From Escherichia coli (lineage in GTDB: Bacteria > Pseudomonadota > Gammaproteobacteria > Enterobacterales > Enterobacteriaceae), in assembly GCF_030013205.1 (NCBI RefSeq), contig NZ_CP122648.1: a stretch of DNA of 64,000 nt. One strand, written 5' to 3'. This document shows positions 57,948-63,654 of the stretch, in pieces. A program made the position numbers and the translations under genes. Every line of letters begins with the position of its first letter. Position 1 is the stretch's first letter. Under the pieces are notes generated by a model. That model was not told the DNA's origin. It saw nothing but the letters and a program-made list of their open reading frames with translations, and did no database searches.

Positions 57948-58682
57948 ATGTCCAAACTCGATCTAAACGCCCTGAACGAACTGCCGAAGGTAGATCGCAT
58001 TCTGGCGCTGGCGGAAACTAACGCCGAACTGGAAAAACTGGACGCTGAAGGCCGCGTTGCCTGGGCGCTGGATAATCTGCCCGGTGAATATGTACTTTCT
58101 TCCAGCTTTGGCATTCAGGCGGCGGTGAGCCTGCATCTGGTGAATCAGATTCGCCCGGATATTCCAGTGATCCTCACCGATACGGGTTACTTGTTCCCGG
58201 AAACCTACCGCTTTATTGACGAGTTAACGGACAAACTCAAGCTCAACCTGAAAGTGTACCGCGCTACCGAAAGCGCCGCCTGGCAGGAAGCACGTTACGG
58301 AAAACTATGGGAGCAGGGCGTTGAAGGCATTGAAAAGTACAATGACATCAACAAAGTCGAACCGATGAACCGGGCGCTGAAAGAACTGAATGCGCAAACG
58401 TGGTTTGCTGGCCTGCGCCGCGAACAATCCGGCAGTCGCGCCAATTTACCGGTGCTGGCAATTCAGCGTGGCGTATTTAAAGTGCTGCCGATTATCGACT
58501 GGGATAACCGAACGATATATCAGTATCTGCAAAAACATGGCCTGAAATATCATCCATTATGGGACAAAGGATATTTATCCGTCGGTGATACCCATACAAC
58601 CCGTAAATGGGAACCCGGCATGGCGGAAGAAGAAACGCGTTTCTTTGGCTTAAAAAGGGAATGTGGGCTGCACGAAGGGTAA
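57948..58682 (+). CDS. cysH: phosphoadenosine phosphosulfate (PAPS) reductase
   Basis: Start set at [15 protein letters not shown] (ATG 57948); ORF-track start 57795 runs through the REP element. Confidence 0.9.
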
Positions 58683-58849
58683 AATATCGTACCGCTTAAT
58701 AAACGTCTCTGTCTGAAAAGATGGGGGCGTTTTTATTTTGCGAGCAGCATTCCTGATTTTAAACGTGAACGCCGCTGGAAGAATTATCAGGTATAGAATG
58801 GCGTTGGGTGCTTGAGGCTGTCTGGCGTTAAGCATTCGCGAGGTTCCAG

Positions 58850-58954
58850 ATGGACAAAAGCCCCAGGCGATATTTCTATCAACCTGAGGCCAGCGTTCGA
58901 ACCCAAACAACTCGAATGTTAGTCTCTTCTTTGCAGGGAGGCAAGACATGCTGA
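58850..58954 (+). CDS. mok-like 34-codon upstream reading frame coupled to the hok-like ORF (hypothetical)
   Basis: ATG 58850; stop TGA 58952-58954 lies just after the hok-like ATG (58948). Confidence 0.3.
58859..58909 (-). ncRNA. candidate Sok-like antisense RNA (hypothetical)
   Basis: On - strand: TTGCCT -35 (58939-58944), 17-bp spacer, TAACAT -10 (58916-58921), then a stem-loop (gccccagg / cctgaggc) followed by TTTTG; antisense to the mok-like frame. Confidence 0.25.
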
Positions 58955-59100
58955 CAAAATATGCCCTTGTGGCAATCATAGTGCTGTGTTTTACAGTACT
59001 GGGATTCACGCTGATGGTAGGCGACTCGTTGTGTGAGTTGAGTATCAGAGAACGTGGTATGGAGTTTAAGGCAGTTCTCGCTTACGAATCGAAGAAGTAG
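58948..59100 (+). CDS. Hok/Gef-family type I toxin, 50 aa (hokX-like position between cysH and cas3)
   Basis: [50 protein letters not shown]: hydrophobic N-terminus, SLCE(L/I) and AxxAYES motifs shared with Hok/Gef; AGGGAGG RBS 6 nt upstream; GC hairpin cgcgggg/ccccgcg just downstream; below the ORF-track size cut-off. Confidence 0.75.
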
Positions 59101-59294
59101 CCACCACGCGGGGGTAAAACCCCGCGTATTGAATTGTGATGGTTTGGTCTCCTGCACCCTTTTTTAATTTATATTGTTTATGTGAATATTATGCCTATGT
59201 TTATTATTCATATATATTACGGATGAAAATTATTTGATTATTCATAATGTAAATATTTTATTGAACGATATATGTCACAGATAATTTTTAATAT

Positions 59295-61994
59295 ATGCGT
59301 AAATATCCTTTAAGTTTACTGAAGGATAAAAATATTGTGACTTTTTTTGATTTCTGGGGAAAAACCCGACGCGGCGAGAAAGACGGGGGCGACGACTATC
59401 ACCTTCTTTGCTGGCATTCGCTGGATGTAGCCGCGATGGGCTATTTAATGGTTAAAAGCAATTGCTTCGGGCTGGTTGACTATTTTCGTCAACTAGGTTT
59501 CGCTGATACGGAGCAGGCAGCACAATTTTTCGCCTGGCTATTGTGCTGGCACGATACTGGAAAATTTGCCCGCTCTTTTCAGCAACTTTACCTGCACCCA
59601 CAACTCAAGGTTCCGGAAGGCGCAAGAAAGAATTACGAAAAGATCTCTCATTCAACGCTGGGCTACTGGCTGTGGCATCATTATTTAAGTGAATACGAAG
59701 AATTGCTTCCTTCATCTTCACTCTCTCCGCGCAAACTTAAACGGGTGATGGAGATGTGGATGCCCATGACTACCGGGCATCATGGTCGGCCCCCTGACCG
59801 TATTGATGAACTGGATAATTTTCTGCCTGAAGACAAAGCTGCCGCACGAGATTTTCTCCTTGAAATCAAGGTACTGTTTCCGCTCATCGAGATCCCCGCA
59901 TTCTGGGATGATGACGAGGGCATTGAACTTTTAAAACAACTTTCCTGGTATATCTCTGCAACCGTCGTACTCGCAGACTGGACGGGATCGTCAACGCGGT
60001 TTTTTCCACGCGTTGCACAGGCAATGGATATTAAAGATTACTGGCAGAAGGCTTTAGTTCAGGCTCAAAACGCCTTAACCGTCTTTCCTCCAAAAGCACA
60101 AACCGCGCCTTTCACCGGAATTAATACACTGTTTCCTTTTATTGAGCACCCGACACCGTTACAGCAAAAGGTGCTGGATCTGGATATCAGCCAGCCAGGA
60201 CCGCAGTTATTTATTCTGGAAGATGTGACTGGCGCAGGTAAAACAGAAGCGGCGCTTATCCTGGCGCACAGGTTGATGGCTGCGAGGAAAGCACAGGGTT
60301 TGTTTTTTGGCCTGCCAACAATGGCAACGGCCAATGCCATGTACGATCGGTTGGTCAAAACCTGGCTTGCTTTCTATTCTCCAGAATCTCGCCCCAGCCT
60401 GGTGCTGGCACACAGTGCCCGCACATTAATGGATCGCTTTAATGAATCACTCTGGTCCGGTGATTTAGTCGGGTCAGAAGAACCGGATGAACAAACGTTC
60501 AGTCAGGGATGTGCGGCCTGGTTTGCCGACAGTAACAAGAAGGCGTTGCTGGCTGAAATTGGCGTCGGCACTTTGGATCAGGCGATGATGGCGGTGATGC
60601 CGTTCAAACATAATAATCTGCGGCTTCTGGGGCTGAGTAATAAAATCCTGCTGGCTGATGAGATCCACGCCTGTGACGCTTACATGTCATGCATTCTTGA
60701 AGGGCTGATCGAGCGGCAGGCGCGTGGCGGAAACAGCGTCATTTTGCTTTCTGCCACGTTATCTCAACAGCAGCGCGACAAACTCGTTGCTGCCTTTGCG
60801 CGTGGTACAGAGGGCCAGCAAGAAGCTCCGTTCCTGGAAAAGGATGATTACCCCTGGCTGACGCACGTTACGAAATCCGATGTGCATTCACACCGGGTAG
60901 CGACGCGCAAAGACGTTGAGCGTAGCGTGAGCGTGGGTTGGCTTCATAGCGAACAAGAATGTATTGCGCGTATCGAATCGGCAGTAAGTCAGGGGAAATG
61001 CATCGCCTGGATCCGGAATTCTGTCGATGACGCTATTAAGGTTTATCGTCAGTTGCTTGCCCGCGGCGTCATTCCTGCTTCCAGCCTTTCTCTGTTTCAT
61101 AGCCGCTTTGCTTTTAGCGATCGCCAGCGAATTGAAACGGAAACGCTGGCACGCTTCGGTAAAAGTTGTAGTTTACAGAGATCATCGCAACTCATTGTTT
61201 TTACACAAGTAATTGAACAAAGTGTGGATATTGACCTGGACGAAATGATATCCGACCTGGCCCCTGTTGATTTGCTGATCCAACGGGCGGGGCGATTACA
61301 GCGGCATATCCGCGATATTAATGGTCAGTTAAAGCGTGACGGAAAAGACGAGCGTTCCCCTCCTGAATTGCTGATTCTGGCCCCCGTCTGGGACGACGCT
61401 CCAGGTGACGAATGGTTCGGCAGTGCCATGCGTAACAGTGCATATGTCTATCCCGATCATGGACGAATCTGGCTGACGCAGCGTGTACTGCGTGAGCAAG
61501 GCGCGATTCAAATGCCACACGCAGCCCGCCTTCTTATTGAATCAGTCTACGGTGAGGACGTGGTAATGCCGGAAGGATTTGCCCGCAGCGAGCAGGAACA
61601 AGTGGGCAAATATTACTGCGATCGCGCAATGGCTAAAAAGTTTGTGCTGAACTTCAGGCCCGGCTATGCCGCCAATATCAACGATTACCTCCCGGAAAAA
61701 CTGTCGACACGTCTGGCTGAGGAGTCTGTTTCCCTGTGGCTGTCTACCTGTATTGCCGGTGTGGTGAAGCCTTATGCCAACGGTGCTCACGCATGGGAAA
61801 TGAGCGTTGTCAGAGTGCGTCGAAGCTGGTGGAAAAAACATCGGGATGAGTTTTCTTTACTGGAAGGGGATGCGTTCAGGCAGTGGTGCATTGAACAGCG
61901 GCAAGAGCCGGAGATGGCAAACGTGATTTTAGTCACCGATGACGAAAGTTGCGGGTATTCGGCTATGGAAGGATTGACTGGCAAGGTTGGTTGA
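59295..61994 (+). CDS. cas3: Cas3 HD-nuclease/helicase, type I-E (variant differing from my recollection of K-12 Cas3)
   Basis: 899-aa ORF: N-terminal HD motif (LLCWHDTGKF), Walker A (TGAGKTEA), DEIH box (LLADEIHACDAY); very AT-rich region immediately upstream. Confidence 0.85.
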   Translation: MRKYPLSLLKDKNIVTFFDFWGKTRRGEKDGGDDYHLLCWHSLDVAAMGYLMVKSNCFGLVDYFRQLGFADTEQAAQFFAWLLCWHDTGKFARSFQQLYLHPQLKVPEGARKNYEKISHSTLGYWLWHHYLSEYEELLPSSSLSPRKLKRVMEMWMPMTTGHHGRPPDRIDELDNFLPEDKAAARDFLLEIKVLFPLIEIPAFWDDDEGIELLKQLSWYISATVVLADWTGSSTRFFPRVAQAMDIKDYWQKALVQAQNALTVFPPKAQTAPFTGINTLFPFIEHPTPLQQKVLDLDISQPGPQLFILEDVTGAGKTEAALILAHRLMAARKAQGLFFGLPTMATANAMYDRLVKTWLAFYSPESRPSLVLAHSARTLMDRFNESLWSGDLVGSEEPDEQTFSQGCAAWFADSNKKALLAEIGVGTLDQAMMAVMPFKHNNLRLLGLSNKILLADEIHACDAYMSCILEGLIERQARGGNSVILLSATLSQQQRDKLVAAFARGTEGQQEAPFLEKDDYPWLTHVTKSDVHSHRVATRKDVERSVSVGWLHSEQECIARIESAVSQGKCIAWIRNSVDDAIKVYRQLLARGVIPASSLSLFHSRFAFSDRQRIETETLARFGKSCSLQRSSQLIVFTQVIEQSVDIDLDEMISDLAPVDLLIQRAGRLQRHIRDINGQLKRDGKDERSPPELLILAPVWDDAPGDEWFGSAMRNSAYVYPDHGRIWLTQRVLREQGAIQMPHAARLLIESVYGEDVVMPEGFARSEQEQVGKYYCDRAMAKKFVLNFRPGYAANINDYLPEKLSTRLAEESVSLWLSTCIAGVVKPYANGAHAWEMSVVRVRRSWWKKHRDEFSLLEGDAFRQWCIEQRQEPEMANVILVTDDESCGYSAMEGLTGKVG

Positions 61995-62091
61995 GATGCC
62001 TGCGACAGGGCTCTCTGAATAGTTGATACACCGAAAAGGATGGAATGATGGACAACCGACCAGGGATGGTCTTTTTTACGAGAGGATGCGT

Positions 62092-63654
62092 ATGAACTCG
62101 TTTTCACTTCTGACAACCCCGTGGTTGCCCGTTCGTTATAAAGACGGAACGACAGGCAAACTGGCGCCAGTCGATCTGGCGGATGAAAATGTTGTCGATA
62201 TCGCTGCGCCGCGGGCAGATCTCCAGGGGGCGGCATGGCAGTTTTTGCTGGGACTATTACAAACCAGCTTCGCGCCAAAAGATCAACGTCGTTGGGATGA
62301 TATCTGGGAAGACGGACTGGAAGCTGAAAAGCTACGGGAAGCATTGCTGTCATTAGACCATGCTTTCCAGTTCGGGCCAGATTCACCTTCATTTATGCAG
62401 GATTTTGAGGCGCTCACGGGAGATAAAGTTCCGGTCGCTTCGCTACTGCCTGAGATTCCCGGCGTTCAAACAACAAAGTTTAATAAAGACCACTTTATCA
62501 AGCGTGGTGTAACGGAATACCTGTGCCCACATTGTTCTGCGTTAGCTCTGTTCTCCCTACAGTTAAATGCGCCGGCAGGCGGCAAAGGCTATCGCACCGG
62601 TTTACGCGGCGGTGGGCCGATGACCACGCTGATTGAATTACAGGAATATCAGGGCAATCAACAAACTCCCTTGTGGCGCAAACTATGGCTCAACGTGATG
62701 CCGCAGGATGAAGCCGACTTACCGCTACCCAAAAAATTTGACGATCTGATTTTCCCCTGGCTAGGCCCGACGCGTACCAGCGAACTGGCCGGTGCGGTGG
62801 TAACCCATGATCAGGTCAATAAACTCCAGGCGTACTGGGGAATGCCGCGGCGTATACGTATTGATTTTAATACCACGACAGTCGGCAACTGCGATATTTG
62901 CGACGAGCAGAACGACGCGCTCCTGAGCCTGATGACGACCAAAAATTATGGTGCCAATTATGCCATGTGGCAGCATCCCTTAACGCCTTACCGTGTACCA
63001 CTTAAAGAGGGGGGCGAGTTTTACTCCGTTAAACCACAACCGGGCGGTTTAATCTGGCGCGACTGGTTAGGCCTTATCGAAACGGGTAAATCAGAAAACA
63101 ATACGGAACTTCCCGCGCTGGTGGTGAAACTCTTTAATGCCAGCAGTCTGAAACAGGCAAAAGTGGGCCTATGGGGATTTGGTTATGATTTTGACAACAT
63201 GAAAGCGCGCTGTTGGTACGAACACCATTTCCCGCTACTGCTCAATAAAAAAGAAGGCCAGATACCGAAGCTGCGGCTGGCTGCGCAAACGGCTTCACGG
63301 ATTCTGAGTCTGTTACGGAGTGCATTGAAAGAAGCATGGTTCTCCGATCCAAAAGGTGCAAGGGGTGATTTCAGTTTTGTGGATATCGACTTCTGGAACA
63401 AAACTCAGCATCGCTTCCTGAGGTTAGTGCGCCAAATTGAAGAAGGTCAGGATGCGGATGAATTACTCGGCAAATGGCAAAAGGAAATTTGGTTATTCGC
63501 GCGTCAGGATTTTGACGAGCGTGTATTCACTAATCCTTATGAGCCCGTTGATTTGAAACGCGTCATGACCGCGCGCAAGAAATATTTTACAACATCGGCG
63601 GAGAAGCAAAGTGCTAAAGCCGCCTGGGAGAAAAAGCAGGAGGCTGCTGAATGA
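62092..63654 (+). CDS. cse1: Cse1 (CasA), Cascade large subunit, type I-E
   Basis: Start set at MNSFSLLTTPWLPVRY (ATG 62092, GAGG 6 nt upstream); GLRGG motif; same architecture as K-12 CasA but different sequence. Confidence 0.8.
   Translation: MNSFSLLTTPWLPVRYKDGTTGKLAPVDLADENVVDIAAPRADLQGAAWQFLLGLLQTSFAPKDQRRWDDIWEDGLEAEKLREALLSLDHAFQFGPDSPSFMQDFEALTGDKVPVASLLPEIPGVQTTKFNKDHFIKRGVTEYLCPHCSALALFSLQLNAPAGGKGYRTGLRGGGPMTTLIELQEYQGNQQTPLWRKLWLNVMPQDEADLPLPKKFDDLIFPWLGPTRTSELAGAVVTHDQVNKLQAYWGMPRRIRIDFNTTTVGNCDICDEQNDALLSLMTTKNYGANYAMWQHPLTPYRVPLKEGGEFYSVKPQPGGLIWRDWLGLIETGKSENNTELPALVVKLFNASSLKQAKVGLWGFGYDFDNMKARCWYEHHFPLLLNKKEGQIPKLRLAAQTASRILSLLRSALKEAWFSDPKGARGDFSFVDIDFWNKTQHRFLRLVRQIEEGQDADELLGKWQKEIWLFARQDFDERVFTNPYEPVDLKRVMTARKKYFTTSAEKQSAKAAWEKKQEAAE

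Follow-up and report, generated by a model that had tools for sequence, protein, structure and literature searches.

The short cas3–cse1 spacer of a second type I-E CRISPR lineage in Escherichia coli reads as the scar of a larger regulatory gap

Introduction

How are the Cascade genes of a CRISPR locus expressed when hardly any DNA separates them from cas3? The question is raised by a stretch of 64,000 nucleotides (nt) from Escherichia coli (contig NZ_CP122648.1 of assembly GCF_030013205.1; hereafter the window), in which a type I-E locus carries cas3 and cse1, the gene for the large Cascade subunit, co-oriented on the plus strand and only 97 base pairs (bp) apart. An earlier note on this DNA took the short spacer, which holds a weak hairpin followed by a run of Ts, as a sign that cas3 is co-transcribed with the Cascade genes, and set it against a much longer, promoter-bearing region in strain K-12. 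Comparison with relatives points to a different history: the spacer appears to be what remains of a much larger regulatory gap, from which a separate Cascade promoter was lost and in which a hairpin presenting a conserved GGA was kept.

A type I-E lineage distinct from that of K-12

The separation given in the earlier note is exact: cas3 stops at 61994, cse1 starts at 62092, and the RefSeq annotation of an identical strain gives the same 97-bp gap. Over positions 61500–62600, strain ST2747 and several pig isolates match the window at 100% identity. NCBIfam models assign Cas3 to TIGR01587/TIGR01596 (cas3_core, cas3_HD) and Cse1 to TIGR02547 (E=2.4e-182), and the cse1 ATG at 62092 is in frame with the open reading frame (ORF) 62023–63654. 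An Rfam search of 58600–62400 at E values up to 1 gave no match in the spacer. A minus-strand ORF of 201 amino acids (aa) that crosses the junction (61787–62392) has no Pfam match and was treated as spurious.

The longer region ascribed to K-12 in the note also proved right. In K-12, cas3 and casA are separated by 414 bp with a G+C fraction (GC) of 0.29, against 97 bp and about 0.49 in the window; as summarized in PMC10013973, Pul et al. 2010 describe there the promoters Pcas and anti-Pcas, which H-NS silences and LeuO activates. The window spacer differs from a region of the Pcas type in lacking an AT-rich island of the H-NS type and, by consensus scan, a promoter-like site on the minus strand. 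The two loci share chromosomal position (cysH - cas3 - casA ... iap), gene order, strand, and subtype. As a reference for a shortened gap, however, K-12 misleads, because the window belongs to another I-E lineage: its Cas3 is 29% identical to that of K-12 and its Cse1 21% identical to CasA, so that the gaps do not represent allelic forms of a single sequence. Protein identities of this order place the locus in a distinct type I-E lineage, the second one of enterobacteria, and not in a shortened version of the K-12 region. Kushwaha et al. named this lineage cas-STM, described its genes as “contiguous,” and found matches in more than 600 Escherichia, Shigella, and Klebsiella strains (PMC7712790).

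Within E. coli the short junction is common. The cas3–cse1 junction region is found at 90% identity or more in 2,454 of 5,426 complete genomes, and the full-length 97-bp spacer in 2,416 of the 5,426, O157:H7 included; the gap of the O157:H7 strain EDL933 is likewise 97 bp. Across four short E. coli alleles, E. albertii, and one Escherichia sp., identity per column of the spacer is 94%. E. albertii and Escherichia sp. (MOD1) have 8 bp fewer, which gives a gap of 89 bp.

Relatives of the lineage also occur outside the enterobacteria. Archaeal contigs of Methanosarcinales and anaerobic methanotrophic archaea (ANME; loci L025–L034, L037, and L040) carry the same lineage with tightly joined genes, Cse1 being 37–40% and Cas3 36–39% identical to the window proteins. 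Since archaeal Cse1 is closer to the window Cse1 than K-12 CasA is, these sequences suggest that the lineage spread between domains by transfer. A 7-kb contig binned in a Collinsella sp. metagenome-assembled genome (MAG), JAIJJM010000114.1, is 97% identical to the window locus over cas3–cse1, 97-bp spacer included, and is probably a mis-binned E. coli contig.

The spacer as the probable remnant of a regulatory gap

Measured from the cas3 stop to the cse1 start in loci of Cse1 relatives from reference genomes and public assemblies, the gap ranges from overlapping genes to several hundred base pairs and beyond (Table 1). The long form exists in E. coli itself. Strain 23CRST031 surfaced as a rare partial match to the 97-bp query; its cas3 and casA are 94.5% identical to those of the window, and its 450-bp allele is present in 7 of the 5,426 complete E. 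coli genomes.

Eight gaps of 420–862 bp share a common layout. A strong G+C hairpin after the cas3 stop (−25 kcal/mol directly after cas3 in the E. coli long allele) is followed by a reversed, near-canonical type I-E repeat, which matches at 20–27 of 29 positions about 25–37 nt past the stop, then by a segment of 19–33 nt and a second, degenerate repeat. Nearly all long gaps continue with an AT-rich promoter region, a small ORF, a hairpin with GGA in its loop, and the Shine-Dalgarno sequence (SD) of cse1. In Pectobacterium the reversed repeat matches at 26 of 29 positions and lies at position 720 of a 1,298-bp stretch. Repeat matches of at least 15 of 29 positions were seen in loci L044, L007, L049, L050, L046, L048, L010, L011, and L052. 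Read on the minus strand, the upstream repeat retains a 5'-handle (e.g., ATCAACCG or CTAAACCG) and the downstream repeat retains its 3' hairpin.

This arrangement is that of creR, a degenerate mini-CRISPR RNA that was shown experimentally, in a Salmonella I-E locus, to guide Cascade to repress PcasA (Liu et al. 2023, 10.1101/2023.03.10.532045). The resulting autoregulation responds to the load of CRISPR RNA (crRNA) and to anti-CRISPRs (10.1101/2023.03.10.532045), and phage mimics of creR RNA have been described since (10.1101/2024.10.29.618823). The long alleles, those of the 7 E. coli genomes included, follow this design in the corresponding gap, with a pair of degenerate repeats around a short spacer-like segment and, near the casA promoter, a partially matching target that has an AAG or ATG protospacer-adjacent motif (PAM). 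The spacer-like segment finds a match in its own gap, at a site flanked by AAG or ATG, in 7 of 9 long-gap loci; identities fall at positions 1–5, 7–11, and often 13–17, with mismatches exactly at 6, 12, and 18, a match that at most 1 in 100 shuffled gaps yields. The target borders on the −35 element, at about −308, of the best candidate for a cse1 promoter in K. aerogenes and C. rodentium. In the E. coli long allele it lies at 2754 of locus L044, about 40 bp upstream of the candidate TTGAGT-17-TATTTT (matrix score 11.5), and also overlaps the −35 element of a predicted minus-strand promoter that would drive the mini-CRISPR.

Most long gaps also hold a small ORF of 32–56 aa with its own SD, downstream of the predicted Cascade promoter. 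Its product (e.g., MEEKPNRYKRLFCRLMIRLGNKLSVSFQLSVR in K. spallanzanii and MNIITPTYKRFICKLMFRLGSKLLLQFEFSIN in Atlantibacter) has the core ..KRLFCRLMIRLGxKLSVSFQLS.., and at least 5 genera conserve the peptide at this site, after the predicted Cascade promoter and before the GGA hairpin. Where the conserved peptide or a counterpart of it in E. coli or Salmonella is encoded, the ORF ends 44–56 nt before cse1. Pfam and NCBIfam searches placed the peptides in no family. The product could act as a leader peptide, or else as a companion to creR in the manner of CreT; a toxin is said to be missing from the creR locus that was published (10.1101/2023.03.10.532045).

Aligned to the E. coli long allele, the 97-bp spacer matches both of its ends. 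The first 18 bp after the cas3 stop correspond to a degenerate form of the post-cas3 hairpin, and the last 45 bp (TGATGGACAACCGACCAGGGATGGTC...GAGAGGATGCGT) are near-identical to the long allele, the stop codon of the leader ORF included. The alignment leaves no counterpart in the spacer for creR, its target, the AT-rich core, or almost all of the ORF, and no repeat-like match of 15 or more of 29 positions was found within the 97 bp. Because only the two ends of the long form remain, the 97-bp spacer reads as a deletion scar, the collapsed form of a 420–862 bp regulatory gap. Truncated remnants elsewhere argue that the short forms derive from the long form: in K. indica only the 3' half of the leader ORF is left, and I. 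alba has the same two ends with about 85 extra bp. Long forms in distant genera (Cse1 47–75% identical) in turn suggest that the long form is ancestral in Enterobacterales and collapsed several times. The ancestral gap would then have run from the strong post-cas3 hairpin through opposite-strand creR, the self-target beside the AT-rich Cascade promoter, and the leader ORF to the GGA hairpin and the cse1 SD, and internal deletions would have removed the middle elements from the common E. coli allele.

Relatives with the shortest gaps provide a further comparison. The main Salmonella enterica type shares the I-E lineage (Cse1 73% identical), no longer has the long gap, and begins its contiguous cluster with cas3 (PMC7712790, PMC7168661). 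It differs in its 11-bp gap, which lacks a hairpin and leaves the cse1 SD within the last part of cas3, whereas E. coli keeps 97 bp with the GGA hairpin, the T-run, and a possible promoter. The 24-bp gap of S. aquatilis also lacks the hairpin.

Some observations stand apart from this comparison. Between cas3 and the creR-bearing gap of Pectobacterium carotovorum (L052 1363–2202) lies a higBA toxin-antitoxin pair, and cas3 of E. kobei (L051 831–3472) is split into two ORFs, so that it is probably a pseudogene. Two small type I-E CRISPR arrays stand some 17 kb upstream of cas3 in the window: the one at 41979–42251 has 4 spacers between 5 good repeats, and the one at 42706–42844 has three degenerate repeats, one pair of which is only 20 nt apart. 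These arrays were considered as a source of a distal creR and set aside: across the 64 kb, no convincing PAM-flanked seed match or creR-type target was found, the spacers of the distal arrays included.

The K-12 gap (L001, reverse strand) contains one degenerate reversed repeat, CGGTTTATCCCTACTTAAGTAGGGAAGGT, which matches at 19 of 29 positions, lies 44–72 nt past the cas3 stop, and keeps an intact minus-strand ATAAACCG handle. In this AT-rich region, the sequence that follows the handle agrees with an AAG-flanked site 218 nt upstream of casA in 14 of 16 positions, all but 6 and 9. The repeat, which the text of Liu et al. does not mention, may represent a creR in decay, with a possible link to the known anti-Pcas transcript.

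A GGA hairpin conserved before cse1

The hairpin and T-run of the earlier note are present, GACCAGGGATGGTC at 62058–62071 and then TTTTTT at 62072–62077 in a scan for terminator-like patterns, and the hairpin is weak, as stated there (−7.0 kcal/mol, z = −1.55). It has a 5-bp stem with 3 G-C pairs and a 4-nt loop and accounts for 90% of the local ensemble. Taken alone it is unremarkable, since 14 of 200 shuffled sequences fold equally well. Folding of the single sequence yields no argument for it, because the whole-spacer fold is no more stable than shuffles (z = −0.6) and its minimum-energy form differs from the local hairpin. Terminator-like patterns of this kind are frequent, at roughly one per kb (11 in 5.4 kb, with 6.3 expected), and shuffled sequence shows them about as often.

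Conservation tells more. A hairpin with an N-GGA loop, closed by an A-U pair and placed 15–60 nt before cse1, is present in every locus with a gap of at least 89 bp. Its stem varies: CCA-GGGA-UGG in E. coli (62060–62069), GCGCCA-UGGAC-UGGCGC in K. indica, GCCA-AGGA-UGGC in Atlantibacter, GCCA-CGGA-UGGC in Chimaeribacter, and GCCGCA-GGGA-UGCGGC in Pectobacterium. In an alignment of 14 sequences, 88% of the cells of the six-pair helix are paired, against 68.5% in column shuffles, none of 500 of which reaches that value; registers slid by 1–3 columns give at most 38%. Four of the 6 pairs show compensatory changes on both sides. The loop GGA is invariant, the base before it takes all four values, and the closing A-U pair is kept in 11 of the 14 sequences. 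The SD contains a second GGA (62084–62086) at a distance of 20 nt from that of the loop, and all relatives with the hairpin have GGA in their SD; GAGAGGA is common to E. coli, E. albertii, Escherichia sp., and I. alba, and other genera have GGA-containing SDs of their own. The high-affinity ligand of CsrA obtained by systematic evolution of ligands by exponential enrichment (SELEX) has the shape of an ACA-RGGA-UGU hairpin, and the conserved hairpin before cse1 takes the same shape.

The U-tract is far less constant than the loop. It is absent after the hairpin in Klebsiella, C. rodentium, Cronobacter, Atlantibacter, Chimaeribacter, and Pectobacterium, and in I. alba a TTTTT stands three bases downstream of the hairpin.

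The layout at 62058–62086 is the one described for Serratia sp. ATCC 39006, where an RsmA motif occupies a predicted hairpin loop 5' of cas8e beside a GGA in the ribosome-binding site, and where RsmA co-purifies with cas mRNA by co-immunoprecipitation (Campa et al. 2021, PMC8450108); binding was measured in Serratia and is predicted for the window. We read the hairpin as a putative translational operator for Cse1, most likely one for CsrA, with at most minor attenuation in Escherichia. A CsrA dimer would probably bridge the loop GGA (62064–62066) and the SD GGA (62084–62086) and so block the ribosome on cse1. The weak hairpin and T-run of the earlier note fit a conserved, GGA-presenting hairpin of the CsrA type better than a terminator.

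Routes to cse1 transcription

Because the separate Cascade promoter appears to have been deleted, read-through from the cas3 promoter appears the most likely route to cse1, and we hold it somewhat better than an even call that such read-through is the main source of cse1 mRNA. Transcripts would begin in the cas3 promoter region, near 59314, and continue into cse1 and the downstream Cascade genes. The junction has a GC of about 0.49–0.50, like the coding sequence on either side, with no AT-rich island, and a consensus scan of both strands over 61400–62200, limited to promoter spacers of 16–18 bp, found no sigma-70-like promoter. The hairpins of the spacer, at −6.2 and −7.0 kcal/mol, compare with −17.6 for the cysH terminator in the same window. 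Relatives point the same way. In S. Enteritidis, with its 11-bp gap, replacement of cas3 raised cse1 20-fold and the other cas genes 7-9-fold (Cui 2020, PMC7168661), and a later preprint treats Salmonella cas3 as a member of the operon (10.64898/2026.02.26.708173). In Serratia, the promoter upstream of cas3 is the main one for the type I-E locus (PMC8450108). The co-transcription proposed in the earlier note thus keeps the shared strand, the short gap, the weak hairpins, and the missing consensus promoter in its favor, with a candidate promoter of the extended −10 type within the spacer on the other side.

That candidate is the basis of another account, in which a weak sigma-70 promoter, rebuilt in the spacer by an 8-bp duplication, starts the Cascade genes independently, possibly besides read-through. 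The promoter prediction that the earlier note had called for gives different answers by method: the consensus scan passes over 62023–62049, because its 15-bp spacer falls outside 16–18 bp, and a position-weight matrix of our own, a rough approximation that admits spacers of 15–19 bp and rewards a TG, returns it as a candidate. Its score of 9.07 is at the 99.93rd percentile of the 64-kb window and equals those of the candidates upstream of cas3; by that measure, 97 bp should hold about 0.07 such sites. Every short E. coli allele that was sampled carries the duplication, which E. albertii, Escherichia sp. MOD1, and the long E. coli allele lack, and without it the equivalent element of E. albertii and Escherichia sp. 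reaches a score of about 4 at best. A(−11) and T(−7) of the −10 element are kept in all sampled E. coli alleles, but its third position varies among them (AATGAT, AAAGAT, AAGGAT), and a 15-bp spacer is rare and weak for sigma-70. The −35 element TTGATA is possibly homologous to that of the long-allele candidate TTGAGT-17-TATTTT, although 35 of 500 shuffles do as well. On balance we regard an independent promoter as unlikely, if deserving of serious attention.

A second alternative holds that the hairpin and its T6 are an intrinsic terminator or attenuator, so that cas3 would form a monocistronic transcript and the Cascade genes would for the most part be silent or depend on antitermination. 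The hairpin and T-run have the form of a terminator, with a stem that dominates the local ensemble, and a 5-bp stem with U6 can terminate a fraction of transcripts. The fold is nonetheless far weaker than the cysH terminator, such patterns are frequent by chance, and most genera that retain the hairpin are missing the T-run, the conserved element being the loop GGA and not the U-tract. The long alleles also argue against a terminator role, because in them the hairpin has a dedicated promoter before it and cse1 after it, and efficient termination at such a place would serve no purpose. Some termination at T6 may perhaps occur, and the hairpin would not be primarily a terminator; silencing of Cascade in this manner seems to us distinctly improbable. 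Least probable of all is a promoter within the 3' part of the cas3 coding sequence, for which speak the frequency of intragenic starts in E. coli O157:H7 (PMC10469882) and the several internal units of the Typhi-type locus (PMC8039139), given that 61400–61994 has a GC of 0.50–0.55, no consensus matches, and a best matrix score of 5.4, about the 99th percentile and unremarkable over 600 bp.

Read-through into a CsrA-type operator remains the reading that we prefer, and several points weigh against it. The score of the spacer candidate, its two retained −10 bases, and the capacity of a short stem with U6 to end some transcripts belong here. The binding of CsrA is predicted from sequence alone. 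The ancestry of the long form is argued from its distribution and from truncated remnants, and not from a tree. The middle 35 bp or so of the spacer (62012–62047) align best to the −35 region of the long-form promoter, with 35 of 500 shuffles as good (p about 0.07), and alternatively match the second degenerate repeat of K. spallanzanii, so that neither match assigns this part, or the number and order of the deletions, with confidence.

Table 1. Positions of features at the cas3–cse1 junction and in related long gaps, with the gap lengths found among relatives
Feature	Position or gap	Strand	Basis or carriers
Presumed cas3 promoter region, only AT-rich stretch (GC 0.29–0.30) of the cas locus in the window	59100..59400	+	Composition profile, matrix candidates
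cas3 (type I-E helicase/nuclease), annotated 899 aa	59295..61994	+	ORF list, stop TGA, NCBIfam
cas3–cse1 spacer, 97 bp	61995..62091	+	ORF list, RefSeq, full-length copies in complete genomes
Degenerate remnant of post-cas3 hairpin	61995..62013	+	About 12 nt deleted in stem; −6.2 against −25 kcal/mol (L044)
Candidate weak promoter: −35 TTGATA (62023–62028), 15-bp spacer, extended −10 TGgAATGAT (62041–62049)	62023..62049	+	Matrix; predicted start near 62055
8-bp tandem duplication GATGGAAT/GATGGACA	62039..62054	+	Alignment; creates the −10-like AATGAT
TGA, leader ORF stop of long alleles, with only the last few codons left	62046..62048	+	Comparison with L044 2863–3003
Hairpin GACCA-GGGA-UGGUC (GACCAGGGATGGTC), putative CsrA/RsmA site	62058..62071	+	Fold, covariation; loop GGA 62064–62066
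T6 run	62072..62077	+	Directly after the hairpin only in Escherichia
cse1 ribosome-binding site (SD) GAGAGGA	62080..62086	+	Sequence; holds second GGA at 62084–62086
cse1/casA (cas8e), large Cascade subunit, 520 aa	62092..63654	+	TIGR02547, RefSeq annotation
Leader ORFs	L007 2513–2611; L049 3349–3447; L050 3290–3448; L048 3287–3457; L010 3845–3943; L044 2863–3003 (46 aa)		
Leader ORF remnant	L024 3893–3946		
cas3–cse1 gap	Overlapping to 24 bp		Methanosarcinales relatives (one outlier 122 bp); one Lambdaproteobacteria MAG overlapping
cas3–cse1 gap	11 bp		Main Salmonella enterica type, Citrobacter youngae, Phytobacter
cas3–cse1 gap	24–28 bp		Serratia aquatilis (24 bp), Enterobacter kobei
cas3–cse1 gap	89–97 bp		Escherichia (89, E. 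albertii and Escherichia sp.; 97, E. coli)
cas3–cse1 gap	151 bp		Klebsiella indica
cas3–cse1 gap	176 bp		Intestinirhabdus alba
cas3–cse1 gap	420–862 bp		Minor S. enterica type, Cronobacter, K. aerogenes, K. spallanzanii, C. rodentium, Atlantibacter, Chimaeribacter
cas3–cse1 gap	450 bp		E. coli long allele, e.g., strain 23CRST031 (L044 2597–3046, NZ_AP045800.1 590226–590675)
cas3–cse1 distance with higBA inserted	About 2.1 kb, 1,298 bp non-coding upstream of cse1		Pectobacterium carotovorum

The cas3 start and neighboring features

The start codon of cas3 is probably annotated 14 codons too far upstream, with GTG 59337 in place of ATG 59295 as the real start. The Cappable-seq data for EDL933, at the d_gTSS entry of Table S5 of PMC10469882, give a transcription start at 3694696 in all four stationary-phase conditions; its equivalent in the window is 59314, which falls 19 nt into the ORF as annotated. 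After that, the first start in frame is the GTG at 59337, with AAGGA 9 nt before it. Several Cas3 homologues align only from about residue 15–17, and Cas3 of other genera measures 882–887 aa.

The genes of the window run cysJ-cysI-cysH, hok/sok, cas3, cse1, and cse2 onward. The hok/sok type I toxin-antitoxin locus occupies 58806–59100, between cysH and cas3 (sok, RF01794, 107 bits; Hok/Gef ORF, 58948–59100), a position at which K-12 has only a sokX remnant. Besides sok, Rfam gave one sub-threshold match upstream of cas3, to ctRNA. In ST2747, cas2 and iap are only about 390 bp apart (L002 15357–15746), so the cas-adjacent CRISPR array of that strain must be very short.

Implications for CRISPR control in E. 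coli

Each ingredient of this junction has a precedent: a contiguous cas3–cse1 arrangement (PMC7712790), a cas3 promoter combined with an RsmA hairpin (PMC8450108), and creR (10.1101/2023.03.10.532045). The 97-bp junction is in this sense a variation on known biology, informative but incremental. Within the literature searched, and to our knowledge, what is new is the GGA hairpin conserved with covariation across ten genera, the E. coli-specific 8-bp duplication at the scar, and the recognition that the dominant non-K-12 allele of E. coli is the scar of a creR-promoter module kept in about 0.3% of these genomes.

A bolder view is that the long allele is more than an autoregulator, and that the scar, in about 45% of E. 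coli genomes, is an adaptive escape from it, with the 8-bp duplication as a compensatory rebuilding of a promoter; we count this a long shot. In one version, creR and the leader peptide could form a CreTA-like safeguard or addiction module. In another, the creR target may be an Achilles heel exploited by phage mimics of CreR (“Cracr” RNAs). If escape were true, Cascade would be hard-wired to the cas3 promoter and CsrA and immune to RNA-guided silencing.

Knowledge of CRISPR control in E. coli comes almost entirely from K-12, where H-NS, LeuO, and other regulators act on the 414-bp region. Nearly half of complete E. coli genomes, O157:H7 included, carry a lineage without a promoter region of the K-12 type, and in most E. 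coli strains of this CRISPR type the Cascade genes are probably no longer controlled separately. The 97-bp spacer holds nothing of the creR module and would be what remains after its loss; the elements that persist point to control by the cas3 promoter, coupled to a CsrA-type translational switch on Cse1. If this is true, the levels of Cas3 and Cascade would rise and fall together, strains with the 97-bp form would be without the autoregulation that senses crRNA load and anti-CRISPRs, and the rules established in K-12 would not apply to most natural isolates. The rare long-gap strains of E. coli provide natural allele pairs for the two forms of control.

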